Numbered from the stretch's first letter, positions 12,932 to 44,748 are shown. The stretch is 64,000 nucleotides of DNA from an uncultured Acidobacteriaceae bacterium (GCA_964407505.1 CAYOVU010000162.1:27247-91246), one strand, 5' to 3'. Notes: generated by a model not told the origin, from the letters alone. Translations and numbers: made by a program.

Positions 12932-12964
12932 GCGTAGCTCTTGGGCTACGCAGTTTTGCTTTTG
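12932..12964 (+). terminator. Rho-independent terminator-like hairpin with a T-rich tail
   Basis: GCGTAGC-TCTTGG-GCTACGC followed by AGTTTTGCTTTTG. It lies between the MFS gene and the TonB-dependent receptor start. Confidence 0.35.
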
Positions 12965-13020
12965 TGGTGCTGCCTGTTGTTGCTCGTGATAGGTCAACCA
13001 AGCTTGAAGAGGGAAAAGTC

Positions 13021-16000: not shown

Positions 16001-16413
16001 CCGTGACCGACCGCGTCGGCTGGTCGCCGCGCAACGCATATTACGGCGATCACTTTTATGATTTTGATCTTCGTGCGTCGCACTCCTTCAAGTTCGGTGA
16101 ACATAGACAGCTTCTATTAGCCTTCGACGCCTTTGATGTGTTCAATCGCCAGAACATTAATGAGGTGACTTCGGTCTACGGTGGCGGGACACCGGATTTC
16201 TGCGGCGGCACCAACGCCCTTAACGGGCCGGTGCCAAAACACTACAACGATGCCGCCTCGCTTGCTATTCAACGCGGGCAGGTAAGCTGTCCGGCAGAGA
16301 TTACCTCGCTTGGTCCTGTAGCGACGGCCCCGGCGCCGAGTGCATTGTTCGGTACGCCAAGGACTATGTTCAACCCGCGTCAACTACAGATTTCAGCTAA
16401 ATGGACTTTTTAA
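13021..16413 (+). CDS. TonB-dependent receptor with N-terminal carboxypeptidase-regulatory-like domain
   Basis: Signal peptide MRQRSMLNVWLVVVTAVCLVPHALGQ. CarboxypepD_reg-like segment (GTVQDTSGRIVVGASVSARN...GYYVVPNLPPGQYELTV). Large beta-barrel-like remainder ending in KWTF (terminal Phe). The ATG at 13021 is preferred over the track start at 12964. Confidence 0.85.
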   Translation: MRQRSMLNVWLVVVTAVCLVPHALGQATLSFAQLNGTVQDTSGRIVVGASVSARNLGTNQSYAATTNSSGYYVVPNLPPGQYELTVQATGFGKSVETGFTLTVGQTATLDVTLKVAGVGELVTVTTEAPPVETSRTEISQVIDAPQIQSLPVNGRQFVDFALLTPGVATGRTSIQSTFTEPDITRISFGGMRDLSNAVTVDGADYIDEGTGSQRATPSQEAVSEFRVVNNSFGAEYGRALGGIVNVVTKSGTNDLHGSLYGYLGNKAANSRSLLQTAQYDQYRRGQFGGTLGGPIQKDRTFFFANYEGQRLGESPTYPSTLIGNLAVFDAAKIALGLPPENLNTLKTLDNDNGFARFDEQINMNNRLTIHYGVIDARDMNVLVGDTLDGGGIGAPSDGHNTFLRDQSLVGTVNTLVKPNVVNTFLVQYARRHYNFPATTGQPNLDLPNELSFGHNFGTFDALDESRQQISDSIAWIKGTHYLKAGIDANFIQNFVIWPGFTPMRIVLPGDNCLVDFANYVNPTADVPGVPGPPCPTGSAPPSGPGPNPNDPLNGVPIVFWGAPLGTGPVVAGSLPPVIPTTFQNAYVDPQDFSFNLNHSYFGLYFQDQWRLNPKLTFNYGLRWDEELGLSQIVNPDHRGFQPRMGLAYSPGKHTVIRAGYGVFDDHYNMTFFFVTYPQREVVIPNAAQPWVRQGNSTATWALNQLSFDAPNPGNPCAGPGSACPLPYPDGSTVPTPSQAAKTLLLTGQTPPNFNTGPGPGQDPNLPPGGSFVTNSGGGIDRNMRLAYSQQASLQLDQEIGKGLVLSVGYLFLRAHKQIRPENLNVCPSAGLANDATFCPPASAIPGPPITPTGPFPGNKTFDGKDAFSGVLYNNAGLMYFLDGSGNAEYDGGTVSVTDKLGQYLRFNANYTYSHTRDDGTFTTFVSTPQDLYNRALERANSVQDIRHRFVGNFTADTPQSSFLRNFEFSMIASLQTPRPFTMFVGNDINGDTNPVTDRVGWSPRNAYYGDHFYDFDLRASHSFKFGEHRQLLLAFDAFDVFNRQNINEVTSVYGGGTPDFCGGTNALNGPVPKHYNDAASLAIQRGQVSCPAEITSLGPVATAPAPSALFGTPRTMFNPRQLQISAKWTF

Positions 16414-19563: not shown

Positions 19564-22500
19564 GTGACTAAAGCAGTCGTCAATCCAAGGATCGTGCATT
19601 CAGGCATCGCGGCGGCGATGATCGTTCTATGGCTTGTAGGGAGCAGTGTGCCCGTCAGCGCGCAGTCTACCTTTGGTAGTGTCGTCGGCGTGGTTCAGGA
19701 CAAGACACAGGCGGTTGTGCTAGGCGCAACAGTTACGATACGTCGTTTGGAAGACAACAGCACACGTTCTACCACGTCCGACCAGAACGGATCATTCGAG
19801 TTTCTGAACCTGAAGCCGGGGACCTATGCCCTTTCGGCTCAAGCCGATGGTTTCGCCGAATTCCAAGTTCCATCCGCCGACCTAACTTCGAGGCAGACGC
19901 TAAGGATCGATATCACGCTCGGGATTAAGAGCCAATCGCAGAGCGTGGAGGTCGCTGACACTGTTGCCGTGATTAATACGGAGAATGCGATGATCAGTGA
20001 CTCCAGGGACAACCAGCAGATCACTCAACTTCCGCTGAACAATCGCGCCACCACAACGAGCCCGCTGGCAGCGCTTTCACTTTCGCCAAACGTGCAACAA
20101 GACAGCTCGGGAAATATCGCGCTAGATGGCGCGAGTTCGGCGATGGTGAACTTTTCTGTCGACGGTATTTCCACTGCTAACGTAAGGCAGAACGGTGCGC
20201 TACAAGACGCTTACCCATCGCAAGAGGGGATCTCTGCCGTGAGCGTAACGTCGTTTAACAACAGCGCAGAGTTTTCGCAGGTCGGCGATGTTACTTTCAC
20301 CACCAAGAGCGGCACCAGTCAGTATCACGGCAGCCTGTTTGAGTATCTGCAAAATGATGCGCTCGACGCTGACCCCTATGGATTCAATGGCAAGTCGCCA
20401 AAACACTTCAACACCTTTGGCGGATCACTCGGCGGTCCACTGAGCATTTCCCATCTTTACAACGGGAAGGACAAAACATTCTTCTTTTTCGACTACGAGG
20501 GAAATCGCCGCTCCACCGCGGTTGCCCAGCAATTTCTCGTTCCTACGCAGGCGGAGCGAAACGGCGACTTAACTGCGATCGATGGCCCGGTGATTTCAAA
20601 CATCAATCCAACCGCCACAGCGCTTTTAACCTACTACCCGCTGCCTAATGTCACTGGCCAGTCGAACTACAATTACGAGAATTTCCAATCCACCCCCGCA
20701 CGCACTGACGGAGCTGACCTGCGCATCGACCACACGATCAATTTGAAGCAATCAGTTTACGCGCGCTTCAGCCGCAAGAACATCACCGAGGACTATGCCA
20801 ACCCGCTGTTACCGAATGACTCTGACAGTGTGCATAATCGCAGTCTGCTCGTCTCGCATACCTGGGCACTCACGCCTCGTCTGCTGAATGAATTCCGGTT
20901 CGGTTTTACAAATGTGACGACCAGCGTTGGTTTCCCGATCGAAGGCGCGAGTGCGCTCTCACAACTCGATCTGGCCGGCGTAAATATCAGCCAGCATCCC
21001 ACCACGCATGCTTTTCCTACGTTCAACTTCAGTGCCGGAACCGGATTTACGCCCATAGGCCGCGACAAGACCGGAGTGACACAGTCGAAGACAATCCAGT
21101 TCACCGACAATCTGAGTTGGACGCGAGGCAAGCACACCCTAAAGATGGGCTTGGATGCGCGAAGGGTGAGGTATTTCGATCTGGAGAGTTTTGCCCCCGT
21201 GTTTAACTCTGACGATTTCGGTGATTACATTTTCCAGGGTACATTCACTGGCAATGCCTTCGGCGACTTTCTCGAAGGAACACCGACGTCTCTGTTCTTT
21301 GCCGTGTCGAGTCCGGACGTGGGCGGAACCGCGTGGCAATACGGCGTGTTCGGGCAAGACGAATACCAGGTCAATAGCCATATAACGCTGAACTATGGCC
21401 TGCGCTGGCAGATCCTGCCGGGCTTTCACGAAGACGGCGGCAATCTGGCGAACTTCGACCAGAGAAACAATTCGATTGTCGTCCCCGACGAGCTGCTGGC
21501 GTATCTGCAGCAACAAAATATAGTGCCGTCCAACCTGGCATTCCAACAGTCGTTCAACGCCTGCAACCTGGATAATACCGCCTTGCCCTGCACGAATTAC
21601 GTTACTGCCAGCCAGGCCCACTTGCCGCAGTCGCTGCGCAACGTTTATATGCGGAACTTCCAGCCGCGGGTATCAATTGCGTGGCGCCCGTTCAACGACA
21701 CCAAAACTGTGATTCGCGCGGGGTTCGGCATCTTTACGATGACCAATCTTGGCCCGCTGTCCTTCAACAACAGCGGCAACCCGACATCCGCGCTGCACAC
21801 TTATACCAACAGTGGAACAACAGCAGTGCCTCTCATTCGGTTCCCCAATACGGCGCCACCCACGGTAGGCGTGCAGTACGGTGGAGGCGGTCTCGATCAG
21901 GGCGTTGATCCGAACTACCGTGATCCGCAAGCCAATCAGTGGAATCTCACCGTTGAGCGTCAACTTGGAAATAACGACAGCCTGCGTGTCAGTTACGTCG
22001 GCATGCACAGTTACCGGCTAAGCATCACCGAAGACCTCAACCAAATCCCGGCGAGTACCACGCCATATCAGGCTACCGCCACCAGTCCCTATGTCGATCC
22101 GCGAGCGCCTTACCACAACTGGTTCACCCTCTATAGCACTTTCAATGCCGGCGAGGCCAACTACAATGCGCTTCAAGTCGAGGAGAACCACAAGATGTCT
22201 CACGGGCTGTACTTCAGTGCGAACTACACGCTGGCGAAAAACCTTGCCAACAATCAAGGCGATACTCCAACTGCTTATGCGGGCGAAGTCAATTACGGAA
22301 TTCCCATCGCCAACCGCTTCGATGTCCACAGTGATTACGGCAACGTCGAAGGGACGCGTCGTAATCGTTTCCTTCTCACCGGTCTTTACCAGTTGCCCGT
22401 CGGCGAAGGCCGTACTTTCCTGAACACCGGTGGTTGGAGGAACGCAGTGCTGGGCGGTTGGGAGCTCACTACCATAACGTTGCTTGAAACTGGCCCTTGG

Positions 22501-22929
22501 CTTACGCCAAGCATCAGCGACTCCTTCGATCAGTCCAATACGGACGTCGTCAACCGTGGCGCTTTCTTGCGTCCCGACCAGGTCTCGACGAATTTCTACC
22601 AGGGTCAGTCGCGCGCGCAATACTTCAATCTCGCCGCATTCTCGCCCACTCCTGCCGGTGCTGGACGCTTCGGCAACGCCGGGGTTGGTATCCTGCAGGG
22701 CCCCGGCACAATCGCGGCCAGCCTCGGCCTCGCCAAAGTCTTCCGCGTTACCGAGGAAGTTAGAATGCGCTTCGAGTCCACGTTTACCAACGTGCTCAAC
22801 CATACAAACTTCGCTCCCCCGGCAACGCAGATCGATGTTCCGTCGACCTTTGGCGTTCTGAGCGCTCCGCAGACGGCAGAAAACGCGGGAAATCGCACCG
22901 GTCAACTCGCCTTGCGAATCGAATTCTAG
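19564..22929 (+). CDS. TonB-dependent receptor with carboxypeptidase-regulatory-like domain
   Basis: GTG start preceded by GGAGGG. Signal peptide ending VSAQ. CarboxypepD_reg-like GVVQDKTQAVVLGATVTIRR...GSFEFLNLKPGTYALS. Ends LRIEF (terminal Phe). Confidence 0.85.
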   Translation: MTKAVVNPRIVHSGIAAAMIVLWLVGSSVPVSAQSTFGSVVGVVQDKTQAVVLGATVTIRRLEDNSTRSTTSDQNGSFEFLNLKPGTYALSAQADGFAEFQVPSADLTSRQTLRIDITLGIKSQSQSVEVADTVAVINTENAMISDSRDNQQITQLPLNNRATTTSPLAALSLSPNVQQDSSGNIALDGASSAMVNFSVDGISTANVRQNGALQDAYPSQEGISAVSVTSFNNSAEFSQVGDVTFTTKSGTSQYHGSLFEYLQNDALDADPYGFNGKSPKHFNTFGGSLGGPLSISHLYNGKDKTFFFFDYEGNRRSTAVAQQFLVPTQAERNGDLTAIDGPVISNINPTATALLTYYPLPNVTGQSNYNYENFQSTPARTDGADLRIDHTINLKQSVYARFSRKNITEDYANPLLPNDSDSVHNRSLLVSHTWALTPRLLNEFRFGFTNVTTSVGFPIEGASALSQLDLAGVNISQHPTTHAFPTFNFSAGTGFTPIGRDKTGVTQSKTIQFTDNLSWTRGKHTLKMGLDARRVRYFDLESFAPVFNSDDFGDYIFQGTFTGNAFGDFLEGTPTSLFFAVSSPDVGGTAWQYGVFGQDEYQVNSHITLNYGLRWQILPGFHEDGGNLANFDQRNNSIVVPDELLAYLQQQNIVPSNLAFQQSFNACNLDNTALPCTNYVTASQAHLPQSLRNVYMRNFQPRVSIAWRPFNDTKTVIRAGFGIFTMTNLGPLSFNNSGNPTSALHTYTNSGTTAVPLIRFPNTAPPTVGVQYGGGGLDQGVDPNYRDPQANQWNLTVERQLGNNDSLRVSYVGMHSYRLSITEDLNQIPASTTPYQATATSPYVDPRAPYHNWFTLYSTFNAGEANYNALQVEENHKMSHGLYFSANYTLAKNLANNQGDTPTAYAGEVNYGIPIANRFDVHSDYGNVEGTRRNRFLLTGLYQLPVGEGRTFLNTGGWRNAVLGGWELTTITLLETGPWLTPSISDSFDQSNTDVVNRGAFLRPDQVSTNFYQGQSRAQYFNLAAFSPTPAGAGRFGNAGVGILQGPGTIAASLGLAKVFRVTEEVRMRFESTFTNVLNHTNFAPPATQIDVPSTFGVLSAPQTAENAGNRTGQLALRIEF

Positions 22930-26796: not shown

Positions 26797-27612
26797 TTAC
26801 TTGTCGAGCCACTCATCAAGGTCTGCCACGCGGTCAAACTCCCAAATTTCTTTGTCCCTTTCGGTTTTCTCAACGTCACTGATGGCGTCTCGTTCGGCAG
26901 CACTCAACACGCCTTTGTCAACTAGCTTGTCAAGCAAAGAACGAAGCCCGACGAGACTGATGGCGACACTATCTTCGATGTTGCTGAATTGGGGTTGGAA
27001 GAAACCGCGAGAAGCTGGCTCATCGTATGCTTTATCAACTAACAACAGATTCATTCGGTACCTGTCATCTTTCTTTGACCAGACCATCTGTCCAAAACGC
27101 ATTTCTCGTGGCGTGTCATTGACGCCTTTTCGCACCACCTGAAAATAAGGCTTCAGTTTTCGAGTTTTGCTTTCCTGTACTTCAGTGAGTTCGACTCTAG
27201 CTTCGATCGTCAATCTACCCTTATTATCGAACTCCTCGCTGTACTTGTAAGGCGTGTATTCGGAACCCGCAATCACCAGTTTTGAAATCTTGATATCTTC
27301 CACTTCGAACAACTCCCACGAAAAAGTTGTTTCGGGCGCGCCTTCACGGTAGCTGTTTGAATGCTGCCCGATTTTCCAACGCCGTTCTTTGCTGGGGTTG
27401 TCAGCATCGGTCTGCACAAATTGCTCGGAGTTGATGAAATCTTCAACGGCGACCGTATCATCGTCGTTCTCGCTCTCAAAACGAACTTGCAATCGGATGA
27501 GTTCTTTACCGGTTGATTGTGATGCGAGAACTTCTCGCTCCAAGAGTTCAGCCGTGATTGGAAGCTCTCCCGCTTTCAACTGAACAAGAGGAAAATTGCT
27601 GGTCGATGCCAT
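26797..27612 (-). CDS. hypothetical protein, 271 aa, acidic, no recognisable motif
   Basis: Clean ORF with AAGGAG upstream. Visibly A/T-richer than neighbours. No TM segment or signal peptide. Confidence 0.6.
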   Translation of the reverse strand: MASTSNFPLVQLKAGELPITAELLEREVLASQSTGKELIRLQVRFESENDDDTVAVEDFINSEQFVQTDADNPSKERRWKIGQHSNSYREGAPETTFSWELFEVEDIKISKLVIAGSEYTPYKYSEEFDNKGRLTIEARVELTEVQESKTRKLKPYFQVVRKGVNDTPREMRFGQMVWSKKDDRYRMNLLLVDKAYDEPASRGFFQPQFSNIEDSVAISLVGLRSLLDKLVDKGVLSAAERDAISDVEKTERDKEIWEFDRVADLDEWLDK

Positions 27613-29900: not shown

Positions 29901-29985
29901 CTCACGGGCCCCGGTACATCCATAGCTATTGCAGAGGCCTCCGTTGCCGCTCTGCGGCATCGCGGAGCCGTTGATAGGCGGCACA

Positions 29986-32439
29986 ATGTCAACCCAGTTT
30001 GGACAGTTCGGGAGAGTTGTCGGGTGCGGGCCCGGCCTTAGGCTCCCGTTGGCTAACCGCTTCTTGTTTCTCATGATTGGCATGGTGGCGCTGGCTTCTA
30101 CGTGCCCTGCCAGAGCCAAGACCGTGCCAGCCTGCGCAGTCAATACCGGCACTGGGCACAACTACGCCGGGCAGGATCTGACCAACCATAACTTTAGCGC
30201 GGATCCCGCCGGATCGCTGATAGGCGCCAACTTCACCGGCGCAAAGCTCAGCGGGGCCATCTTCACCGGCCAGGATCTAACCAATGCGAAATTCCAGGGA
30301 GCCAACCTCGGACCGGCGAAGGGTCCCGTCGACTTCAGCAACGCCACGCTGACAAATACCTGTTTCATCGGCGCAACAATGGATGAAACGGATTTCTCTT
30401 ACGCCGTCATCACCTGCGCCGACTTCACCGAGACATCGCTGATCAAAGCAACGTTCGGGCCGGTCCAGAACATCGTGATGGGGACCGGCTGCCGCACGCG
30501 GTTCAACGGTGCGACGCTGGATGTGCGGCTGATCGGCAACGATTTCAACGGCAAGAGCAACTGGAGCAAGACCGACTTCACCGCGGCCAACTTCCAGAAC
30601 TTGACGCCGACGTCGTTCAGTCTCGTCGGTAAGGACATCACCGGCGCGAAACTGGGCCAGACCAATTTCACCGGCATCGACATGACCGGAGCCAACCTCA
30701 CGAATGTTGACTTCACCCTCACCACCCTGATCAAGGCGAAGCTGGATCGCACGGCGATCAACGGCGCTCATTTTTATAATGCGCAAGCGGGGTCCGCGAC
30801 ATTCATCTGCGCCCAAGCGTTTGGCAATTCAGGCGGACAGAAACTTCCCAATGGCACCTCGTGCCCGACCACGCCGACCTCGATCAATCCAACAACCAAC
30901 ACCAACTTTACCTTCGCGGCGTTGAAGGGCGCGGATTTTACCGGCGCTACCCTGGATCACGCGCAGCTCGTGGCGGCGAACCTGACAAGCGCCCATTTCG
31001 ATGGCGCGAGCCTCGTCCAGGCGTCTTTGCAATCGCAAAACGGACAAACTGGGCCGGCGATCGTACAATTTGCAACCTTCAGTAACGCCAAGCTCAACAA
31101 CGCTCTTGTGTCCGGGGTTGATTTTTCGGGCGCGACCCTGACCAACGCGATTTTCGACAACACGCTTCTTTCCGGCACGCTGTTCGCGAACGCCACGATG
31201 CCGGGCGCTAGTTTTCAGTCTTCGACCTTGCAATCTGTAAATTTCAGCGACGCCATCCTTCAATCGGCGAAATTCAACGACGCGAAGATTCAGGCTCCAT
31301 CAACCGGCCCTGGGTCCGGAGCGAATTTCTCGTGTAGCCAGTTGGGTGGCGCCGACTTTACTAACGCGAGCATCGCCGCCACTAATTTCAGCAACGCCGT
31401 CATGCCTGCGGCAGATGCTTGCTGCAAGGTAGAGGGTGGCGGAGCCCCGTGGTGCGGCAACATCGACGCGACCCAACAAACCTATGGACCGGTAACTTTC
31501 CCGGTCATCAACTCGGGCATTATCGTCACTTGCCCGAACGGCTCAACTGGGCAATGCACCGGAGCGCAATGGCAACTCTCGCCCAACTGGCAGACCACAA
31601 GTTGCAACAAGAACGGCGTATCGCAACAGATGTGGTCCAAGCCGAATTGTGGCGGCAAGCCAACCGACATCGTCAAGTTTAAGGACCCGAATCTAAAAGC
31701 CTGCATCCTCGCGACGCTGCCTGGCCAGACCGAAGTGTATCTAACAACGGCGCAACAGATCAGCCAGGTCAACTGTCCGGGCCGACAGATCGCCGATATA
31801 GGCGGCCTGGAGAATTTCATCTCGCTAACAAAGCTGGACCTGCGATCTAACGCCCTGACGATCTTCACGCTGGCCATCACAGCCGGAGGCAAACCGGCGC
31901 CGTCGCAACTGCAAACCCTGAGTCTGGACAACAACCAGTTGACCACGCTCGACCTGACGGCCCATCCCGCGCTGGTTTCCTTGAGCGTCTCGAATAATCG
32001 ACTCGGCGGCACGATTACCCTAAACGCTAATACATACCTACTGATACTGGACGCTTCGCACAATCGTTTGTCGACGGTCAACCTGCCGATTCAAAGCAAT
32101 CTGAGTTTCGTGGACCTTTCCTACAATCTGTTGACCAACGTCCTCAATCAGTTCTCCCCCAATCTGAATGCTTTGCAGGCGTTGAGCTATCTGGATCTGT
32201 CTCACAATGTCTTGACCACCATCGGTTCGATCCAGACCATCGCGTATGACAACAATTCCGACAGTTCCGCCAATTTGAAATCTTTGTTCCTGGCTTGCAA
32301 TCCGAAATTCCAATGCGGCGATCTGGGTGTCTATGACGGCACCCGTTATCCGGCCGCGTCGTCCAGCCAGTGCTCGGCTTACAACACCGTGACGGGAAAA
32401 TGGACCCCGTTAAGTACGCCGCAGTGCGCGCCCAACTGA
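29986..32439 (+). CDS. exported pentapeptide-repeat / leucine-rich-repeat fusion protein
   Basis: Signal-like RFLFLMIGMVALASTCPARA. About 400 aa of A(D/N)LxX-type pentapeptide repeats (ANFTGAKLSGAIFTGQDLTNAKFQGANLG...). Cys-rich linker. About 7 LRRs (LTKLDLRSNALT, LQTLSLDNNQLTTLDL, LSYLDLSHNVLTTI). Cys-containing C-terminal cap. Confidence 0.8.
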   Translation: MSTQFGQFGRVVGCGPGLRLPLANRFLFLMIGMVALASTCPARAKTVPACAVNTGTGHNYAGQDLTNHNFSADPAGSLIGANFTGAKLSGAIFTGQDLTNAKFQGANLGPAKGPVDFSNATLTNTCFIGATMDETDFSYAVITCADFTETSLIKATFGPVQNIVMGTGCRTRFNGATLDVRLIGNDFNGKSNWSKTDFTAANFQNLTPTSFSLVGKDITGAKLGQTNFTGIDMTGANLTNVDFTLTTLIKAKLDRTAINGAHFYNAQAGSATFICAQAFGNSGGQKLPNGTSCPTTPTSINPTTNTNFTFAALKGADFTGATLDHAQLVAANLTSAHFDGASLVQASLQSQNGQTGPAIVQFATFSNAKLNNALVSGVDFSGATLTNAIFDNTLLSGTLFANATMPGASFQSSTLQSVNFSDAILQSAKFNDAKIQAPSTGPGSGANFSCSQLGGADFTNASIAATNFSNAVMPAADACCKVEGGGAPWCGNIDATQQTYGPVTFPVINSGIIVTCPNGSTGQCTGAQWQLSPNWQTTSCNKNGVSQQMWSKPNCGGKPTDIVKFKDPNLKACILATLPGQTEVYLTTAQQISQVNCPGRQIADIGGLENFISLTKLDLRSNALTIFTLAITAGGKPAPSQLQTLSLDNNQLTTLDLTAHPALVSLSVSNNRLGGTITLNANTYLLILDASHNRLSTVNLPIQSNLSFVDLSYNLLTNVLNQFSPNLNALQALSYLDLSHNVLTTIGSIQTIAYDNNSDSSANLKSLFLACNPKFQCGDLGVYDGTRYPAASSSQCSAYNTVTGKWTPLSTPQCAPN

Positions 32440-32477
32440 ACCATTCACCACGCGTCATTTACGAAGGGAGATTAGTC

Positions 32478-35400
32478 ATGCCGCAATCAAACGCAGGAAT
32501 GCTTCAAACCCATTTTCACGCCGATTTATCGGATGGACACCCTGGTGAGGATTACTGGGTCTCAGTCGCCGGCAAGCGCTATCCGCTGGTGCCGCATACT
32601 CCGGAAACACTCAGCGCCGCCCACGCGCGCTCACCAAGGCTGAAGGCTGGCCGCACTAATTCGGTGCTGACCCATCGCACAGCACAGCCGATTTCGTTGC
32701 CGTCGAATACGGTGATCCGGGTGCATCTGCGGCATACCATGCGCGGCTTCCCCAACGCGAAAAGCGAGACCGGCATCGGCCTCTCCGCGCTGTACATTCC
32801 ACCGTCGGACACCCATCTGTCCGCAATGACCGCTGACTCTATCTTCGACGCGCACCCGATCGACTATGTCTCGACTGCGCAGAATTTCATCTATCACCAC
32901 CCGGAAATCATCAATAAAGATAAAGTGGTCGCCGGCATCGTCGTCGACGAGTTCATGGTGGGCGATCCCAATATCGCCCTGGCAATCAATAACGTCGCGA
33001 CCCTCATGCGCAGCATGGGTCCGGCTACCGAGAGTGGCGGATGGGCCAAACTGGAACCATTCACGCCGCCCGATAATCCCGGCTCCGGCTTCGACGGAAA
33101 GAAAACCTACTACCACCAGACTGTCAGCGAGCAGGTCCAAAGCGCGTCGCTCGCGCCGTTGACGCCGTTGATGATCCGGGTGAAGAACGATGCCCGGTTG
33201 AAAGGCAAACTATGGACGGTCTCGGAGGGCTCGAGCGTGGTCTCCACCACCGCGCAAGCGCCGTCTCCTGCCGCGCGGGCGGCCGAGGCTCCAGATGCCT
33301 GGAACGCCGCTATCGCCAATACCGGCGCCCACGGCCTGACCACGAAGGTCACGATTGCGGACGCGAGCAAGCAGCAAATCCAGATCGATATGGAGAATTC
33401 CTATATCCGCTATCTCTGCGGCTATATCCGGTTCTACGACGCGAACAACAACGTGCTGTCGTTGCCCAATTGGAAAGCCGACGACGCGGGCATCGTGCAT
33501 GACATCGTCGCCGATATCGGCCTGCAGTACGACGAGACACGTTTCCTGGGAATGCTCTCGCCCATGAATAATTTCATGGCCATCCCCTTCGGGCCGCCCG
33601 GCGCGTTGTCTGCAAAGGTCACATTTCCACCGAGCGCCGTGCGTGCCGATGTATTGGGATCGGGCATCGGAACCGGCGCCAATCCTTGGCCGAAGACGCC
33701 CGCTCTTGGTGGTACGCTTACCGGCGTTTTCAACCTCGGCGTGCCCGCCTTTATGCTGGGCTTCGGCACGGCGGCACAGTCCTATAAGCCGCTTTACGAC
33801 ATCATCGAGGAGCTTACAGCCACCAAGGGCTTCATTGCCGCGGCGATTGCTGCTGGTCTTGGGTTCCTGGGCTATGTCATCGGTTCGTCCGCAGTCGATC
33901 AGAAGATGAACTGGAGCGGTTTCACCACTATGGTGGGCTTCCTGTTTAACAGGCTCTGCCTCAAAGGGCTGTTGTATGTCGAATCGATCGTCGCGGCCGA
34001 AGAAGTGGCCGACGAAATCCCATTCGCCGGCTGGCTCATGCTGGCGATCAACATCTGCACCGGCGTCGCGCAAATGGCCGAAACCATCATCGAGGTCGCG
34101 ACCTCGGACTGGAATATCACCAACAGTATCGCGACGACCATCACCACTCGTGTAACGGTCCATCCGGACCCGCGCAGCAAGTCTTTCCCGCAGGGGCCAG
34201 CCGGGACTCCGCGCAGTCTTGTGGTCAAGATGATCTATCAGGATCAGGCCCGTCCCACCGTGCAGCAAACGCTGCCGATCCCGGAAGGATCCACTGCAAC
34301 CACATACACCATCGCGTTCGCCAAAAACACGCTGGGCGGCAACGTGAAGCTAGAGGCGGATTTCTATGTCGGCACATGGCTCGCCGGTAAAGCCACCACC
34401 GGTGTGCAGCCCAATGACCGGCTCCACGTCGACGAAGTCACGATGTATCTGGTGGAGTTCCCCGTCCCGCTGACTGCGGACTCCAAATATACTCACGCCC
34501 GCATCCTGACTTACCAGAACAATGCTTATGCCTGGATGGACACAAAGACTGCGCCGACCGAAACCATCGCCAGCCGGAACGCCAGCCCGACGGGCAATGC
34601 GCTGGGCGACTGGACCGGCCTCGCACTCAGTCAGCGCTCCGGCATGTTGGGCCCGTCCTGGCAGGCCGCAGGCATGGGAATTCCGGACTGCGCCACCGGC
34701 GCTACGGGGCAGCTTTACGCCTTCATGAACTTCAACATCCCCGGAACGCCGATGGCCGGCACGCAGTTCCCAAACTGCGGCTTCGTCGGACAATCCCGGC
34801 TGATCTATGATCCGTATCCGCCGAAGTTCCTCATGGGACCGAACGGCTGGGTGCTGGACCCGAACGGGCATCCGGTTCCCGATCCCAAGGACTCAACGCT
34901 GGGTAACTATTACGTCGATCCGCGCTCGGCTAATCTTCCCTATGATCAGGGCGGCGGCTTCCATCTGCGCCAGATCAAGTTGGACGGCACTACGCCCCTC
35001 AACATGGCCAGCGTCCAACCCAGTTTCGGACGCTTCGCATATTTCCCTGACTCGGTCTGTTTGCATCCCTCCGGTCTAGTGATCGGAGTCAGCGCCTCGT
35101 TCAAGAAGCTACAAATCGTGAAACTGGCGGGAGGTGCGGGCAAGGCAGACACCGACATTGTCCTGGGCGAGATCGGCGCCGGACCGGCCACCGATCCCAC
35201 TCGACCAGGTCTGATGTTCCACCCGGTTGCCGTCGCCTGCGCCTATGACGGAACCATCATCGTGCTGGAAGATACCAAGTTCTCTACCGGCCAGCAGATA
35301 ACCACGATATCCCGGCTGTCGGCCTATGACCTGCAAATGAAACCAGTCAACCGTTTCTTCGACGCGCAGGGTAAGCCCAGTCCATGGCTGTATCTGGCGA

Positions 35401-35747
35401 ATCCAGCGGATAACTACTATCTGGATATGACTACGGTCGGCGACGAGCAGATGACCTATATCTACGTGCTTTATTACACGGGATCGGGAGCTGCGCCGTC
35501 GGACTATAACATGGCAATCTACACCTATGGCAAAACGGCTCCGAAGACGAATCCGCTCGTGACCACAAACCAGATCGCGGCTGCCAGACTTGCCGTCGAC
35601 ATGTGGCATTCCGCCTATACGTTGAATTTCGCCATGGTTACAGACGGCAGCGGAAAGATCGCTGGCCCGAAAAACGCAACGACCGGACCAGCCGGGCGGA
35701 CCGTACCCTCGGTCAGCATGTGGCTGCCGCCCATTCCTGGTAAGTAA
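32478..35747 (+). CDS. large hypothetical protein (1089 aa) with a central hydrophobic helix cluster
   Basis: ATG at 32478 preceded by GGGAG. No signal peptide. Four hydrophobic segments are encoded at about 33708-34112. No family motif recognised. Confidence 0.75.
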   Translation: MPQSNAGMLQTHFHADLSDGHPGEDYWVSVAGKRYPLVPHTPETLSAAHARSPRLKAGRTNSVLTHRTAQPISLPSNTVIRVHLRHTMRGFPNAKSETGIGLSALYIPPSDTHLSAMTADSIFDAHPIDYVSTAQNFIYHHPEIINKDKVVAGIVVDEFMVGDPNIALAINNVATLMRSMGPATESGGWAKLEPFTPPDNPGSGFDGKKTYYHQTVSEQVQSASLAPLTPLMIRVKNDARLKGKLWTVSEGSSVVSTTAQAPSPAARAAEAPDAWNAAIANTGAHGLTTKVTIADASKQQIQIDMENSYIRYLCGYIRFYDANNNVLSLPNWKADDAGIVHDIVADIGLQYDETRFLGMLSPMNNFMAIPFGPPGALSAKVTFPPSAVRADVLGSGIGTGANPWPKTPALGGTLTGVFNLGVPAFMLGFGTAAQSYKPLYDIIEELTATKGFIAAAIAAGLGFLGYVIGSSAVDQKMNWSGFTTMVGFLFNRLCLKGLLYVESIVAAEEVADEIPFAGWLMLAINICTGVAQMAETIIEVATSDWNITNSIATTITTRVTVHPDPRSKSFPQGPAGTPRSLVVKMIYQDQARPTVQQTLPIPEGSTATTYTIAFAKNTLGGNVKLEADFYVGTWLAGKATTGVQPNDRLHVDEVTMYLVEFPVPLTADSKYTHARILTYQNNAYAWMDTKTAPTETIASRNASPTGNALGDWTGLALSQRSGMLGPSWQAAGMGIPDCATGATGQLYAFMNFNIPGTPMAGTQFPNCGFVGQSRLIYDPYPPKFLMGPNGWVLDPNGHPVPDPKDSTLGNYYVDPRSANLPYDQGGGFHLRQIKLDGTTPLNMASVQPSFGRFAYFPDSVCLHPSGLVIGVSASFKKLQIVKLAGGAGKADTDIVLGEIGAGPATDPTRPGLMFHPVAVACAYDGTIIVLEDTKFSTGQQITTISRLSAYDLQMKPVNRFFDAQGKPSPWLYLANPADNYYLDMTTVGDEQMTYIYVLYYTGSGAAPSDYNMAIYTYGKTAPKTNPLVTTNQIAAARLAVDMWHSAYTLNFAMVTDGSGKIAGPKNATTGPAGRTVPSVSMWLPPIPGK

Positions 35748-35800
35748 TTGGCTGATCCGGGCGCTCATTTAGTAGAGACCACATTCGTGGAGGATCTGCG

Positions 35801-37879
35801 ATGAAAGCTGCACATGTCTTCGTGACCGGCGTTGCCTTACTGTTCATTTCGCTTCTGATCCAGGCTCAAGAGCCACCTCAACCGCAGGCGCCCGAGCAGT
35901 TATCGACACCTACTCCGGCAGCGATCGTGGGAGCTGAGTCGCTCTCCTGCGCTTATTGCGACCTTCGCGGGAAGGACCTGGCGGGGAAGAATCTGAAAGA
36001 CGCCAATCTGATCGGCAGCGACCTGCGGGAGGCGAAACTAGCTGGCGCTACGCTGGACGGAGCCATTCTGGTCGAGGCGAATCTGGCGGGTGCGGATCTG
36101 ACTGGCGCCAGCCTAGGCGCGACATCCAAGGGCCCCGCCGACTTGACGCGTGCAAACCTGGATGCAGCCAATTTCAGCCATGCCGTGCTGACCGGCGCCC
36201 AGCTGGTGTTCGCCGACCTCGAAGGAACCGACTTCCAAGGCGCCGACCTGACTGGTGCGGTCCTGGGGCCGCATCCGGACATTGGCACCAGCGGCGGACG
36301 GCGTACTTCGTTTCACGGCACCCGCATGGATCGGCGCTGGGCCGAAGCCGTTGCGGCGGCGGATATGCAAGGGGTGATTTGGAACAAGTCGAAAGCGAAA
36401 CGAAACGCGCCGCTAACTGCTGGAGTCACGTGCGGTGGTTCCAACGTTTCGGGCATCAAGAACCCAGTCTACGTCTCCTCGAGCCAGGGAACCGACAACT
36501 CTAACTGCGGCTCGAGTCCCACCACGGCGTGTAAGTCTTTGGTCTATGCGCTGACCCGCTGCACCTCCGGCAGCTGCAACGTGCTGGCGATGTACGATCA
36601 ATTCGTTCTGCCCGCGACATTGGTATTCGACAGTCGCATCACTCCGGCTGGCGCACAGCTCTACGGCGGCTGCCTCGCCTCGGGGCCGACTGACGGGTTG
36701 ACATCGGAGATTATGGCGCCACCGGGCGGCGCGCCAGCGGTGAGCGTCGCCGGAGTGAAGCCCGTGGTTGTGCAGAATTTCAAGATCCTCGGATCGGCTG
36801 CAACCGCGGGCAAAGGCACACCGGCGGTGACTGCGCAGATCACGCAAACGTCGCAGGTCACCGTCACCAACGGCCTGATCGTTGGAGGCACAGGTGGAAC
36901 TGGCGCCATTGGAAACAGCCAGGGTCCCGGCACAAAGGGCGGATCGGCGAACCAGAAGACCGGAGGAACAAATCCAAGCTGCACGTTGAGCAATGGCGGG
37001 AGTGGCTCCGGCGAGATGAATGTGGATAACCATTACACGAGTTGCAGCTGGCCCTGCACTAGCCCAGGCTGCTGGGGGGTAACTGGAGGTCCTGGAAGTG
37101 TCGGCTCGGGAGGAGCCGGCGGAAAGTGGGGGGAGCCAAAGGGGGTGATGTGCCCGCCTTGGACCCCGAATGACGGCAACGGCGGAGGAGGGGGATCGAA
37201 CGCTCGCTGCGGCACCGGGGGTGTGGCCTCAACCAACATTCAAGGCAGCTTTAATGGAGAAACTTGGATTCCTGGTGTGGGAGGTACAGGGTCAGTCGGC
37301 GGAAACGGCTCTGGCGGCGGCGGTGGCGGTGCGGGCGGAGCCATGTGCGGTAACTGCCTTCTTGTCCCGTGGGGATATTCGGGTTCAAGCGGAGGCGGAG
37401 GCGGCGCTGGCGGCTGCGGTGGACAGCCGGCAACGGGTGGGCAGCAGGGTGGTGCGTCTTTTGTGCTCGTGGCTACCGGCGGATCTGTACTTACGCTAAA
37501 TCAGTCTCGCGTAGTTGCCGGGCGTAGCGGCGATGGCGGTCCGGGTGGCGTCGGTGGCAATGGCGGTGCGGCTGGCAGTCATGCCACCGGTTCGGGTAGC
37601 AGCGGCTATGGATACCATGGCGGCAAAGGAGGCGACGGTGCTGATGGAGGAATCGGGGGTGGTGGGGGCGGTGGCTCCGGCGGCAATGCGGGACCGTCCG
37701 CGGCGGTTGCGTTGGTCAGCGGCGCGAAAGTCGACGGAACTGGCATTGTTTATTACAAGGGCAGTTCGGGCAGTTTCGGCGGCGGCGGAGCTGGTGGCAC
37801 GAGCGTCGTCTGCCCCTCAGGGCCTAGTGGGAATTCAGGCGTGCTCGGCAGCGTGGCTGAAACCTTGAGCTATCCTTAG
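35801..37879 (+). CDS. exported pentapeptide-repeat protein with beta-helix-cap-like segment and glycine-rich C-terminal half
   Basis: SD GGAGGA. Signal peptide VALLFISLLIQAQE. Pentapeptide repeats (ANLIGSDLREAKLAGATLDGAILVEANLAGADLTGASLG). VYVSSSQGTDNSNCGSSPTTACKSLVYAL resembles the N-cap of right-handed beta-helix (DUF1565-like) proteins. The last ~330 aa are dominated by GGxGG runs. Confidence 0.8.
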   Translation: MKAAHVFVTGVALLFISLLIQAQEPPQPQAPEQLSTPTPAAIVGAESLSCAYCDLRGKDLAGKNLKDANLIGSDLREAKLAGATLDGAILVEANLAGADLTGASLGATSKGPADLTRANLDAANFSHAVLTGAQLVFADLEGTDFQGADLTGAVLGPHPDIGTSGGRRTSFHGTRMDRRWAEAVAAADMQGVIWNKSKAKRNAPLTAGVTCGGSNVSGIKNPVYVSSSQGTDNSNCGSSPTTACKSLVYALTRCTSGSCNVLAMYDQFVLPATLVFDSRITPAGAQLYGGCLASGPTDGLTSEIMAPPGGAPAVSVAGVKPVVVQNFKILGSAATAGKGTPAVTAQITQTSQVTVTNGLIVGGTGGTGAIGNSQGPGTKGGSANQKTGGTNPSCTLSNGGSGSGEMNVDNHYTSCSWPCTSPGCWGVTGGPGSVGSGGAGGKWGEPKGVMCPPWTPNDGNGGGGGSNARCGTGGVASTNIQGSFNGETWIPGVGGTGSVGGNGSGGGGGGAGGAMCGNCLLVPWGYSGSSGGGGGAGGCGGQPATGGQQGGASFVLVATGGSVLTLNQSRVVAGRSGDGGPGGVGGNGGAAGSHATGSGSSGYGYHGGKGGDGADGGIGGGGGGGSGGNAGPSAAVALVSGAKVDGTGIVYYKGSSGSFGGGGAGGTSVVCPSGPSGNSGVLGSVAETLSYP

Positions 37880-40879: not shown

Positions 40880-41100
40880 TTTGTCTTGACAACGAAAGGC
40901 GTTTGGGGCTAAACCTTTCGTGCAGAGTGGAATAGTACAGAAGTACTAGCTGAAAGGCCAGTAAAAGAACGATATTCTTAATCGCCTTCGCATCTCAGGC
41001 GATTTTTGGCAGGAATGGCGTACGGCTGGGGAAATCTGATCTTGCTATGTCAAAAACCCGTCTCTGTGGACGGGACCAACTTCTAGCGTGGGGGAACTCC

Positions 41101-44100
41101 ATGATGAGATTCATTCGCTGGTCGCTCGCCTTGTGTCTTCTGCTGTTCGTGTCAGCATCAGCATTTTCACAAAGTAGAAACACCGGCGAGATTCGCGGCA
41201 CGGTGTCGGCTGGGGGAGCCGTGGTGCCAGGTGTAACCGTCACGCTCACCAATAGAGACACGGGGGAAACGAAGGATTTCGTCACCAACAAAGACGGCAT
41301 CTACGACACGGTTTCGACGCCGGCGGGAAACTACACCATCAGCTTTACGGCCAAGGGATTCAAGAAGCTGGTGCGCGGTCCTATCCCGCTGCAGGTGGAC
41401 GTGATCACTGAGGACGCCGCTCTGGAAGTTGGCTCGATAACGGAAACGGTGACGGTGGAAGCCGAAGGCGCGCCGCTTGTCGAGACCGAAACCGGCCAGC
41501 AGGGTTCCATTATGGAATTCAAAACCATTTCAGAACTGCCCCAGTCGGGGGGCGGGATCACCGGCGCAGACTGGGCTTCTTTCAACATCTATCTGCCGGG
41601 CGCTGGAGGCACTACGAACGGGCGGACCTCGCAGGCCGGGGGTGCCTGGAATGCCGGCGACGCGGTTTCCATCAACGGCAACCTGCCGAACTTCGGCAAC
41701 TTCCTTCAGGACGGGGCCAGCACCTTACTGCCGGCGAGCTACAACAACGACGATGAGATCTTCGAGAGCATTCAGGAGGTTCAGATCAACACCTCTTCCT
41801 TCTCGGCGCAATACGGCATGGGCGGCGTCATGTTCAACCAGATCAGCAAGAGTGGAACCAACGGTTGGCATGGGTCCGGTTATGAGTTTTTCTCGCAGAG
41901 CTTTCTAAATGCCAACACTTATTTCAACAATCAGCAGCCTAAGTTGATTACAAACGCCCTGAACCCCACGGGCCCGGAAATTCCTAACCCTGCGGCGCAA
42001 GTGCCGTATTTGCGGTACGACCAGTTTGGCGCCTCCATCGGTGGGCCTATTATCAAGAACAAACTCTTTTTCTTCTTCGACATAGACAGGATCGTCAATA
42101 ACACCGTGGTGAACAACGGGATTAACGACTTTGCCACCGTTCCTACGGCCGCTATGGAGAAGGGTGATTTTACCGGCATGTACCCCATTTATGACCCGCT
42201 CACCACAACCGGGTCGGGGGCGACATTGAGCCGGACGCAGTTCCCCAATAACATGATCCCGGCGAACCGGATCGACCCCGTGGCGGCGGCCATTATGGCT
42301 TCCAAGTATGGCTGGCCCACCGCAGCGCAAGGGACAGGAACATGCGCGGCCCCTCCGGACCAGAACGACTGCACAAGTAACTACTACAACGCGCCTAAAA
42401 CTCCCGCCCCGGTTCACCGATATTTTGGGCGGTTGGACTACGACCTGAGCGCGAAGCACCGCATCATGTTCTCAATCAGCCAGAAGGATAACCCCGGGGT
42501 CGACAACGGCCTGTTCCCCTGCCCGCTGAATTGCGGTAGCGGGGACGTGGACGGTTGGAACACGCAGGTCACCGAAACGTGGACGATCAGTCCGACGATC
42601 GTCAACGAAATCCGGATGGGTTATACCAAGCAAGGCAACTGGTTCCAATCCCAGTCCCTCGGGTTGAACCCCGCAACGGCATTCGGCCTGCAAGGTACCC
42701 ATTTTAACCAATTCCCCTTCATTGGCAACTCAAGCATTTATGGTCAATTCGGCGGCCCGGATAACGTAAGCGTCTTGTCGCCCGCCACGGACGCCATTTA
42801 CATCGAGAACTCGTTTGACCCCTCCGAAATGGTGACGCTAGTCAAGGGCAAGCACGTTCTGCATTTTGGGATTGAGGTGTTGATGGCCGAGGGCAACACC
42901 ACGGCCTGGGGCTCCAACAGCGCCGGCAACTACGGTTTCACCGGACAATACACCGCAGGCACAACCTGCACGCCGGCAAACGGAACAACGCCAGCAACCT
43001 GTACGCTGAATACCGGAACCTCGGGCTCGGGCTTCGCGGATTTCCTGCTCGGCAACATCCAGTCCTGGTCCGCGCAGAACGAGAACGCGACCGGAATGCG
43101 GCTGAAGAGCCCGCAGGCCTTCGCTCAGGACGACTGGAAGATCAAGCCCAATCTCACCCTCAACCTCGGCTTGCGCTGGGAGGGGAACACGGGCATGAGC
43201 GAGCAATCGAATCGCCTTGGCGATTTCGACCAGAATCTCATCAATACCGTCGGCCCCTTCGCAGGCACCCCGGGCTCGATATGGATTGCCCCTCAGGATA
43301 ACCGAACGACCTTGCAGAAGCCGGTTTGGAACATCTTCCTCCCTCGGGTAGGCTTCGCCTGGTCGGCCAGGGACAACACCGTCATACGAGGCGGTATAGG
43401 GTTCTTTGCCTATAACTACAGCATGGATCTCTATGGTGGTGAGGGCGGTGGGCAAATGGGTTTCGGCAATACCTCTCAGGGCAACATCAGCGACCCTCTC
43501 AGTGCCGCCGGGGACACGGGCTGGATTTCCGGCACCGGCAACACTACCCCGCTCTATTTAAGCTCGAGCGCTGCGATGATGGCCAAAGCCCTGCCTTACG
43601 TTCAGGGCTCGAAGAACCCGGCGTCCTACACCACCAATCCCGTCTTTAGTCCACCTTACGAACCCTATAACATCAGGCCGGGAGAGATCTGGGAATGGAA
43701 CCTCTCCATTGAGCGCCAGTTCGCCAGGGACTTTGCGGTGTCGGCCGCTTACGTCGGCAGTCACGGGGCGAATCTGCAATACGTCACCGACCTGAACCAA
43801 ATCACCAACCCGGCCCTGCTGGCCTCGAACGATATATCGGCCTGCAACGGGGCAACACCCGCAACACCCACATCAGCATCCGCGAACGCCCCCATCCAAC
43901 CTTGCGCGCGCCCCTATCCGGCGTTTGGAAGCCTTTCCGGCTCAAACTTCAACAGCATCTCCAACTACAATTCGTTGCAACTCGACGTGCGGAAGCGTTA
44001 TACCCGAGGGCTGACCTTCGATGTCAACTATGCCTGGTCGCATTTCCTGGATGACCAGGACTCGGCCGGATGGGGCAGCACGGCCGGGGCTCAGGCTTGG

Positions 44101-44748
44101 CAAATCGGAAACAATCCCTCCGCTAACTACGGCAACTCGAACTTCGACATCCCGCAAGCGCTCAAAGGGACTGCGGTATACGAACTGCCGTTTGGCATAG
44201 GCAAGCCCTATATGAACCAGAATGCTATCACTGACGCTGTGCTTGGCGGGTGGAGCCTCTCGGGGACGCTTATCTACCAGAGCGGCACTCCGTTCACGGT
44301 GCAGGACAAGGGTGATAACGACTATTCGCAGGCCGGCACTGCGTATGCCAACCCCATTCCAGGTGTGAACCCCTTTTCAGGCACCTGCACCATTAACGGC
44401 GTGGCTGTACCCACACACACAGTGACCTGCTGGTTCAACCCGGCAGCCTTTGAGACCCCAGCCGAGCAGGGCAACGGGGCGTTCGGGTATGGACGCAGAA
44501 ACACGCTCTTCGGGCCAAAACTGTCTGATATTAACCTGTCTCTGGCGAAGACCTGGCATTACAAGGAACGAGCCGGGCTCACACTTCGCGCAGACTTCGT
44601 TAACGTCATGAACCATCCGAGCTTCTCACTACCGGACACTGGCGGACCTAACGGCAATCCTGACGTGAGTAGTTCGGGCGCGGCCACTATCACGCAACTC
44701 GCGAACGGGCCACGTACGATCCAACTGGGCGCGCGGCTATCCTTCTAA
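41101..44748 (+). CDS. TonB-dependent receptor with carboxypeptidase-regulatory-like domain
   Basis: Signal peptide MMRFIRWSLALCLLLFVSASAFSQ. CarboxypepD_reg-like GTVSAGGAVVPGVTVTLTNRDTGETKDFVTNKDGIYDTVSTPAGNYTISF. Ends ARLSF. Confidence 0.85.
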   Translation: MMRFIRWSLALCLLLFVSASAFSQSRNTGEIRGTVSAGGAVVPGVTVTLTNRDTGETKDFVTNKDGIYDTVSTPAGNYTISFTAKGFKKLVRGPIPLQVDVITEDAALEVGSITETVTVEAEGAPLVETETGQQGSIMEFKTISELPQSGGGITGADWASFNIYLPGAGGTTNGRTSQAGGAWNAGDAVSINGNLPNFGNFLQDGASTLLPASYNNDDEIFESIQEVQINTSSFSAQYGMGGVMFNQISKSGTNGWHGSGYEFFSQSFLNANTYFNNQQPKLITNALNPTGPEIPNPAAQVPYLRYDQFGASIGGPIIKNKLFFFFDIDRIVNNTVVNNGINDFATVPTAAMEKGDFTGMYPIYDPLTTTGSGATLSRTQFPNNMIPANRIDPVAAAIMASKYGWPTAAQGTGTCAAPPDQNDCTSNYYNAPKTPAPVHRYFGRLDYDLSAKHRIMFSISQKDNPGVDNGLFPCPLNCGSGDVDGWNTQVTETWTISPTIVNEIRMGYTKQGNWFQSQSLGLNPATAFGLQGTHFNQFPFIGNSSIYGQFGGPDNVSVLSPATDAIYIENSFDPSEMVTLVKGKHVLHFGIEVLMAEGNTTAWGSNSAGNYGFTGQYTAGTTCTPANGTTPATCTLNTGTSGSGFADFLLGNIQSWSAQNENATGMRLKSPQAFAQDDWKIKPNLTLNLGLRWEGNTGMSEQSNRLGDFDQNLINTVGPFAGTPGSIWIAPQDNRTTLQKPVWNIFLPRVGFAWSARDNTVIRGGIGFFAYNYSMDLYGGEGGGQMGFGNTSQGNISDPLSAAGDTGWISGTGNTTPLYLSSSAAMMAKALPYVQGSKNPASYTTNPVFSPPYEPYNIRPGEIWEWNLSIERQFARDFAVSAAYVGSHGANLQYVTDLNQITNPALLASNDISACNGATPATPTSASANAPIQPCARPYPAFGSLSGSNFNSISNYNSLQLDVRKRYTRGLTFDVNYAWSHFLDDQDSAGWGSTAGAQAWQIGNNPSANYGNSNFDIPQALKGTAVYELPFGIGKPYMNQNAITDAVLGGWSLSGTLIYQSGTPFTVQDKGDNDYSQAGTAYANPIPGVNPFSGTCTINGVAVPTHTVTCWFNPAAFETPAEQGNGAFGYGRRNTLFGPKLSDINLSLAKTWHYKERAGLTLRADFVNVMNHPSFSLPDTGGPNGNPDVSSSGAATITQLANGPRTIQLGARLSF

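Follow-up and report, generated by a model that had tools for sequence, protein, structure and literature searches.

A 1089-residue protein with a conserved helical module and its secreted pentapeptide repeat partners in a three-gene cassette spread over several bacterial phyla

In a 64,000-nucleotide stretch of DNA from an uncultured Acidobacteriaceae bacterium (GCA_964407505.1 CAYOVU010000162.1:27247-91246; the window hereafter), the gene at 32478-35747, here called B, stands between two co-directional genes, A and C, that encode secreted pentapeptide repeat proteins (PRPs). This obligate pairing of B with secreted PRPs is the main clue to its role and was missed in the first-pass annotation of the window. 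The three-gene B-PRP cassette, previously undescribed, was found in at least five bacterial phyla. Our best explanation, offered tentatively, is that B is the extracytoplasmic, membrane-interacting core subunit of a new module made of B and PRPs, acting either as a toxin-like inserter or as an envelope factor. The genes of the cassette are:

29983-32439, plus strand: gene A, about 818 residues from the ATG at 29983 (the reading frame is open from TTG 29929), with Pfam Pentapeptide and LRR_4 matches
32478-35747, plus strand: gene B, 1089-residue protein, stop codon at 35745-35747
35801-37879, plus strand: gene C, 692 residues, Pfam Pentapeptide PF00805 match (9.7e-23)

The 1089-residue protein proposed in the first pass is real: its frame runs through 1089 codons without an internal stop, a GGGAG ribosome-binding motif precedes the ATG, and homologues start at the same FHADLSD motif. 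An alternative start at GTG 32370 was rejected, as the in-frame extension overlaps gene A and contains no signal-like stretch. B had no match in Pfam-A at E ≤ 0.1 and none in NCBIfam, PADLOC or PHROGs, and searches of PDB sequences with the single sequence and with a 48-sequence profile returned nothing beyond one chance-level match (E 0.084). None of these profile and sequence libraries placed B with confidence in a transporter or enzyme family, the kind of match that the first-pass annotation had named as contrary to its proposal. The anti-phage defence models of PADLOC matched none of A, B and C.

Both partners of B belong to the PRP family by its usual criterion, with at least eight tandem pentapeptide repeats matching Pfam, and both match PRPs in the PDB. 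Protein A combines the repeats (PF00805, 2.3e-45) with a leucine-rich repeat (LRR) region (LRR_4, 1.2e-9) and has an N-terminal signal-like segment (...FLFLMIGMVALASTCPARA). Protein C carries the signal peptide MKAAHVFVTGVALLFISLLIQAQE and a CxxC motif just before its repeats, which is conserved in C orthologues; its PDB sequence matches are limited to residues 42-187. Every A and C orthologue examined has a Sec or lipoprotein signal peptide. Residues ~200-692 of C are extremely Gly-rich, with runs such as GGGGGAGG; this part had no Pfam or PDB sequence match and is the fastest-evolving part of the cassette.

The arrangement recurs across 34 genome loci from Acidobacteriota, Alpha- and Gammaproteobacteria, Bacteroidota and Chloroflexota, where the three genes are co-directional at every locus with enough flank. 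Most loci have the order A-B-C; Bacteroidota and the roseobacters Tritonibacter, Phycobacter and Pseudophaeobacter have A-C-B, and Pseudomonas agarici and Lysobacter have A-B-C-C. The trio is also present in Methylocystis, Thioalkalivibrio and two long metagenome contigs, with unrelated outer neighbours. In the window, A, B and C probably constitute one operon (29983-37879). Upstream of A there are two promoter-like sites, and neither intergenic gap contains a plus-strand terminator-like site, which fits a single transcript, with the counts of such sites no higher than in shuffled sequence. The GC content of the cassette (0.55-0.63) is not distinct from that of its flanks and thus gives no signature of horizontal transfer.

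The family definition and phyletic survey called for in the first pass revealed a large and widespread family. A word-indexed search yielded 55 relatives of B, nearly all of ~1090 residues, including proteins of Methylocystis bryophila and Thioalkalivibrio paradoxus; all those with an annotation are called 'hypothetical protein'. Searching 1.84 billion cluster representatives with a profile retrieved 1103 clusters (50% identity) at E ≤ 1e-3 and 543 at E ≤ 1e-30. According to the genome scan, the closest orthologues (96-97% identity) are in metagenome-assembled genomes of Acidobacteriaceae and Candidatus Sulfotelmatobacter. Others are in Alphaproteobacteria (Azospirillum, Roseovarius, Tritonibacter, Phycobacter), Gammaproteobacteria (Pseudomonas agarici, Lysobacter, Methylococcales, Thiodictyon), Bacteroidota (Chitinophaga, Niastella, Saprospiraceae), Chloroflexota and a record named Mycobacterium sp. 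KBS0706. Viral contigs contained no relatives, and the plasmid search gave a sole, distant match on the megaplasmid of Xenorhabdus bovienii CS03. A full-text literature search found no description of the B family or of the cassette.

Export signals in relatives of B bear directly on where the module works. By a crude rule, 46 of 186 full-length members have an N-terminal export signal, 32 of them for the twin-arginine translocation (Tat) pathway and 14 of the Sec-like or lipoprotein type; the rule misclassifies two of these 14, the long fusion proteins P0147 and P0152, and precomputed Pfam TAT_signal matches back the Tat calls. Members of the Tat clade are 25-28% identical to the window B, and their cassette consists of B followed by a single PRP of 650-850 residues, with lipoboxes in both proteins (...LAGCGSDD in B, ...LVAACGGGG in the PRP). 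Two relatives, P0151 and P0154, are direct B-PRP fusions, and in one A-B-C cassette (L046) the B orthologue has a Sec signal that looks cleavable and is preceded by a strong Shine-Dalgarno sequence. Together, the Tat-clade pairs, the fusions and the Sec-signal orthologue indicate that the B-PRP partnership is ancient. Judging by these signals, the partnership operates outside the cytoplasm in the signal-bearing relatives. Transport of the signal-less window B by Tat hitch-hiking on A or C was considered and rejected, as neither has a consistent twin-arginine motif.

Several features of the distant loci are recorded here in their own right. The Xenorhabdus locus (NZ_FO818638, 159388-175470) encodes, in order, a 1482-residue distant B homologue, a 419-residue unknown protein, a 217-residue collagen-like protein and, as the third gene downstream of B, an 823-residue PRP lacking a signal peptide; the group adjoins a type I polyketide synthase and an IS6 transposase. 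The PRP partners at four Tat-clade loci (L043-L045 and L006) and the fused PRP of P0154 share a Cys/Pro-rich C-terminal motif, e.g. GPFPPQPPCVPS..FCYENC. The Xenorhabdus PRP carries a similar motif, which the window A and C do not show.

To define the architecture of B, we relied on two AlphaFold2 models, one of the full protein built from 48 sequences (mean predicted local distance difference test score, pLDDT, 79.6; predicted template modelling score 0.66) and one of residues 1-705, built to unmask the N-terminal half. Four parts were delineated:

32478-33692, plus strand: N-terminal domain, residues 1-405, mixed alpha/beta, pLDDT mostly 80-92
33693-34112, plus strand: helical hydrophobic module, residues 406-545, Gly/Ala-rich, defined by hydropathy, alignment and pLDDT <50
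34113-34577, plus strand: beta-sandwich, residues 546-700, from the secondary structure in both models
34578-35744, plus strand: six-bladed NHL-type beta-propeller, residues 701-1089, from Foldseek, pLDDT mostly 85-95

The full model is confident at residues 1-245, 275-405, 546-700 and 701-1089 (all-beta), and the flanks of the helices score 80-95. AlphaFold2 divides the N-terminal domain into sub-domains 1-245 and 275-404, with a linker between them that is predicted to be disordered (~248-272). The AlphaFold and Foldseek check suggested in the first pass identified the propeller, returned low pLDDT for the helices and found no PDB or BFVD match for the N-terminal half. Specifically, the 1-705 model had no match in either library at E ≤ 1e-3, so that the N-terminal ~400 residues and the helical module are without a detectable structural relative in the libraries searched.

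The beta-propeller-like C-terminus proposed at first pass proved to be a ~390-residue, six-bladed propeller of the NHL type. Its best Foldseek match is the NHL domain of TRIM2 (E 2.5e-6, probability 1.00), TRIM2/3 NHL domains span 2.5e-6 to 2.2e-5, and further matches are Brat, BtuG and strictosidine synthase. The Pfam NHL repeat does not match the window B; in P0151 and P0154 it does so faintly, below threshold (E ~0.009). The description of the C-terminal half as beta-rich was accurate for the propeller and did not distinguish the separate ~155-residue beta-sandwich that precedes it. About 135 residues of this sandwich probably bear a weak Foldseek likeness to domain 4 of cholesterol-dependent cytolysins (CDCs; E ~2e-3, probability ~0.7), and it also weakly resembles pilotins (E 2e-3 to 1e-2). 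With the full model as query, Foldseek gave matches to the propeller alone; a chain of the T4 baseplate, aligned to full B over 632 columns, was discounted at a template modelling score (TM-score) of 0.13-0.14.

The region that had drawn attention in the first place, four clustered hydrophobic helices at ~33708-34112, lies where it was described. The segments quoted there correspond to residues 411-433, 450-472, 479-501 and 514-538 (nucleotides 33708-34091), and the cluster is no chance feature, being kept in all 186 aligned full-length family members. Their hydrophobicity, on the other hand, is only moderate. We estimated the apparent free energy of membrane insertion (ΔGapp) on a rough, position-independent Hessa scale over the best 19-residue windows, with calibration helices that serve as a rough yardstick only:

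33708-33776, plus strand: helix 1 (H1), residues 411-433, GGTLTGVFNLGVPAFMLGFGTAA, rough ΔGapp ~+4.9 kcal/mol, with T415 and P423 near invariant
33825-33893, plus strand: helix 2 (H2), residues 450-472, the most hydrophobic in the window B (Kyte-Doolittle 1.93, ΔGapp ~+1.1 kcal/mol) and poorly conserved family-wide
33912-33980, plus strand: helix 3 (H3), residues 479-501, amphipathic and weakly hydrophobic, ΔGapp ~+6.3 kcal/mol
34017-34097, plus strand: helix 4 (H4), residues 514-540, IPFAGW...AQMAETIIEV, ΔGapp +3.9 kcal/mol, the most conserved segment of B

Only four Kyte-Doolittle peaks of at least 1.5 (19-residue windows) occur in B, three of them at 446-538 and one at a propeller strand (912-930). 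Median ΔGapp values for H1-H4 are 3.9, 2.7, 8.4 and 3.9 kcal/mol in the window clade and 2.0, 9.1, 4.0 and 4.8 kcal/mol in the Tat clade, so that the two clades differ as to which helix clearly falls short of membrane grade. Across the family, the mean number of segments below +3 kcal/mol is less than one per protein. The loops between the helices are neutral or acidic with no clear positive-charge excess, and Gly and Ala make up 25% of the module. The models assign pLDDT <50 to residues 425-434 and 462-535 (full model) or 428-521 (1-705 model), so that AlphaFold2 shows no well-packed core in which these segments would be the buried helices of a soluble fold, an outcome the first-pass annotation had named as contrary to its proposal.

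Conservation within the module is strikingly uneven. Computed per column over 135 representatives sharing ≤ 50% identity, it peaks in H4 (2.10 bits, the highest in the family), is 1.80 bits in H1, and falls to 0.9-1.1 bits in H2 and H3, the least conserved helices. T415 and P423 occur in 99%, P515 in 96% and G518 in 85% of these representatives; around helix 3, the window clade conserves W479 and E502. Such conservation of H1 and H4 is unlike that of simple anchors and suggests a specific, conserved function of the pair, which appears compatible with passage through Sec or Tat. The best reading of the module is therefore a conserved, marginally hydrophobic, Gly/Ala-rich element rather than four ordinary transmembrane anchors, with helix 1 (T415, P423) and helix 4 (PFAGW) as its functional pieces. 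B is best read as neither a known enzyme nor a four-pass inner-membrane protein. As to the translocation or pore-forming layout suggested in the first pass, the succession of soluble domain, marginally hydrophobic helices and beta-rich binding domains would suit an exported protein that carries a module for membrane insertion, but B has no homology or fold match to known translocation or pore-forming domains, the sole hint being the weak likeness of the sandwich to CDC domain 4.

The three proteins evolve at different rates. When near-identical genomes are compared, identity is 96-97% for B, 92-94% for A and 79-89% for C, and in more distant cassettes B retains 47-69% identity against 37-63% for C, so that B is the most and C the least conserved of the three. 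Among the 96-97% identical orthologues, substitutions in B are evenly spread and no hypervariable patch was found; the propeller is among its best-conserved parts, second only to helix 4. With the slowest changes of the three, spread evenly, B looks like a conserved machine, and C and A like more exposed or specificity subunits.

We propose that the module comprises B plus one or two secreted PRPs and would act outside the cytoplasm. The helical module of B may contact or insert into the bilayer from outside, at the outer membrane of the producer or at a target membrane; the beta-sandwich and propeller would bind a conserved ligand or partner; A and C, solenoid proteins that evolve faster, could serve as exposed or specificity subunits. 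The domain anatomy, the family size, the obligate B-PRP linkage, the export signals of partners and relatives, and the marginal hydrophobicity and low pLDDT of the helices are shown by the analysis; from these features we infer the membrane insertion, the physical B-A-C complex and the final effect. A membrane lesion of the toxin type and maintenance of the outer membrane are about equally likely as that effect. Toward the former point the patchy occurrence across phyla, which suggests horizontal spread, the LRR region of A, the copy on the Xenorhabdus megaplasmid and the fusion to a BPI-like domain, as well as a layout that may be likened to that of pore-forming toxins. Toward the latter point the lipoboxes of both B and PRP in the Tat clade, the very high conservation of B and its propeller, and the precedent of YjbI, a secreted PRP described as acting at the outer membrane of Caulobacter (PMC12864828). 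A bolder version, in which B and the secreted PRPs form a new multi-component membrane-active machine (a pore- or lesion-forming toxin or an outer-membrane remodeller) whose H1/H4 hairpin would insert while the PRP solenoids deliver or specify, strikes us as doubtful.

Several observations weigh against our explanation. Its main weakness is that the window B and its whole clade have no recognisable N-terminal export signal (neither Tat nor lipobox) and no C-terminal domain of the type IX secretion system kind, which leaves the route of this B out of the cytoplasm unexplained, so that it might remain cytoplasmic or cross only in part. Signals are likewise missing from the B-PRP fusions and from the Xenorhabdus PRP; either an unrecognised export route exists, or part of the family works differently. 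The low pLDDT of the helices may equally stem from a shallow alignment or from the oligomeric state, and the ΔGapp values lack position dependence. With regard to a toxin, the cassette contains no immunity-like gene, which makes an antibacterial one less likely, and a propeller that is conserved rather than diversifying argues against a classic receptor-binding toxin domain.

An alternative that we consider unlikely is that B is soluble (periplasmic, surface-located or cytoplasmic) and that its module is a buried core for oligomerisation or a hydrophobic-ligand pocket, serving ligand binding or catalysis with no insertion. The marginal hydrophobicity of the helices is in keeping with such a protein, as is Tat export, used for folded and often cofactor-bearing proteins, in the 32 relatives. 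So is the fusion, in P0147, of a B relative to an N-terminal LBP/BPI/CETP lipid-binding domain. Enzymes and ligand binders, moreover, are numerous among NHL and strictosidine-synthase-like propellers. The N-terminal domain has the conserved residues H40, T65/H66, H141, N307 and R311, and its three histidines H40, H66 and H140/H141 (nucleotides ~32595-32900) are present in 87-96% of representatives; H40, H66 and H141 could mark a candidate metal site, which would fit Tat export in relatives. H14 and H83, by contrast, are not conserved in distant relatives, no enzyme family or fold was matched in the libraries searched, and neither AlphaFold2 model packs the helices on the soluble domains with confidence.

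It is more improbable that B is a polytopic inner-membrane protein with four transmembrane anchors, working as an anchor or sensor for periplasmic A and C. The N-terminal domain and the sandwich and propeller would then be cytoplasmic or, with three spans, the C-terminal half would be periplasmic. Such a location would account for the lack of a signal peptide in the window-clade B when A and C are exported, helix 2 is near membrane-grade in the window B, and low pLDDT is also seen in some membrane segments. However, whereas a polytopic protein should have several segments near or below 0 to +2 kcal/mol for insertion by the translocon, the other three helices are at +3.9 to +6.3 kcal/mol and the family averages fewer than one segment below +3, the loops lack a clear positive-charge excess, and H1 and H4 are far better conserved than simple anchors require. 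The Tat, Sec and lipobox homologues, finally, would have the same N-terminal domain on the other side of the membrane.

Very improbable is a relationship to the Lipocone superfamily, whose four-helix core is either membrane-embedded or soluble, depending on the family, with a pocket formed by a conserved His in H2, Glu in H3 and Asp in H4 (PMC12419801). According to this proposal, the helical module would be a divergent Lipocone-type domain with enzymatic action on lipid head groups or lipid-linked carriers, and the propeller and PRPs would be ligand-binding accessories. The likeness lies in a hydrophobic four-helix core and in ligand-binding fusions: the superfamily is often fused to beta-propellers, and one Bacteroidota operon links it to a PRP (PMC12419801). 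We rejected membership because B lacks the defining His/Glu/Asp pattern: it has neither a conserved His in H2 nor a conserved Asp in H4, H2 and H3 are its least conserved helices, and what is conserved is T415, P423 and P515-G518. Nor did any Pfam model match B at E ≤ 0.1, though Pfam includes several profiles related to Lipocone, namely DUF2279, DUF2238 and DUF4056.

The idea that the cassette is an accessory of the toxin complex (Tc, ABC toxin) locus ~11 kb downstream can practically be set aside. That locus comprises, on the plus strand, a TcB/TcC-type gene (46990-54885; 2631 residues, SpvB 8.6e-110, TcdB_toxin_midN, midC) and a TcA-type gene (55300-63702; 2800 residues, VRP1, ABC_toxin_N 6.6e-42, Neuraminidase-like). 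The two systems have in common a multi-gene cassette, large secreted proteins, and a beta-propeller with a hydrophobic translocation element, and they share the window; but their sizes and architecture are unrelated, and A, B and C are free of TcA, TcB, TcC and RHS domains (VRP1, ABC_toxin_N, SpvB, TcdB_mid, RHS). The cassette is separated from the Tc locus by several unrelated genes, part of them on the opposite strand, and the gene calls for 10 kb of flanking DNA around four other cassettes, from Methylocystis, Thioalkalivibrio and two metagenome contigs, are free of Tc genes.

The outer neighbours of the cassette are housekeeping-type genes on the opposite strand (short-chain dehydrogenase/reductase, enoyl-CoA hydratase, amidohydrolase, LacI). 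Elsewhere in the window, the following were recorded:

377-3604, minus strand: a single nonribosomal peptide synthetase module of 1075 residues (Condensation, AMP-binding and PP-binding)
12964-16413, 19564-22929 and 41047-44748, plus strand: large outer-membrane proteins with CarboxypepD_reg and OMP_b-brl_4 (TonB-dependent-receptor-like), an architecture typical of Acidobacteriota
26797-27612, minus strand: a 271-residue open reading frame whose sole Pfam match, CARD (E 6.8e-4, 20 bits against a cutoff of 23.9), is probably due to chance

PRPs are abundant, and the roles of those that are secreted are mostly unknown. The cassette described here gives secreted PRPs an obligate, highly conserved partner, and cultured carriers are at hand: Methylocystis bryophila, Thioalkalivibrio paradoxus, Pseudomonas agarici, Lysobacter, Chitinophaga, Niastella and several roseobacters. 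The B family itself, at ~1100 clusters, has no Pfam model, and ~700 residues of B lack a detectable structural relative; through its helical module, which is conserved and marginally hydrophobic, B may engage membranes in a novel manner. Were B a toxin, it would found a new toxin family; as an envelope factor, it would bear on outer-membrane biology in several phyla. If the membrane-active machine is true, it would provide the first mechanistic role for a large group of secreted PRPs, and the N-terminal half of B would be a new fold.

Compared with known systems, the propeller, PRP and LRR parts of the cassette are familiar folds, whereas nothing in the libraries and literature searched corresponds to the N-terminal domain, to the helical module or to the B-PRP system as a whole. 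The likeness of residues ~700-1089 to NHL propellers (TRIM2/3, Brat, BtuG surface lipoproteins, strictosidine synthase) is at the level of the fold, with E from 2.5e-6 to 1e-3, TM-scores normalised to the target of ~0.4-0.5 and only 8-12% identity. An NHL-like sequence motif is clearer in B relatives than in the window B, and, unlike in known NHL propellers, the propeller of B is fused to a novel N-terminal half. With the CDC/MACPF toxins, B shares only the weak local likeness of its beta-sandwich to domain 4; their pore-forming domain was found in B by neither Pfam nor Foldseek.

Alpha-helical insertion modules of soluble exported toxins are exemplified by the diphtheria toxin T domain, colicin pore domains and domain I of Cry toxins. 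In such domains, a hydrophobic helical hairpin is shielded by amphipathic helices as long as the protein is soluble and inserts upon a trigger. Like these, B has marginally hydrophobic, Gly/Ala-rich helices, too weakly hydrophobic for stop-transfer anchors, in a putatively exported, water-soluble protein beside beta-rich binding domains. It differs from them in having no sequence or fold match, in the position of the module in mid-protein between two large conserved domains, in the lack of a cargo or catalytic domain, in its obligate PRP partners and in a propeller that is conserved, not variable.

For the partner proteins, the nearest comparison is YjbI of Caulobacter, as presented in the excerpted report: a Sec-exported PRP with cysteine pairs flanking its beta-helix that acts at the outer membrane or lipopolysaccharide layer (PMC12864828). 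The excerpted text mentions no B-like partner of YjbI (PMC12864828). Unlike YjbI as described there, A and C have 690-840 residues with an additional LRR region (A) or Gly-rich domain (C), and the likeness is known from the repeats alone. What the systems have in common is an exported PRP with cysteines at the edge of its repeats, seen in C orthologues as the CxxC just before them.

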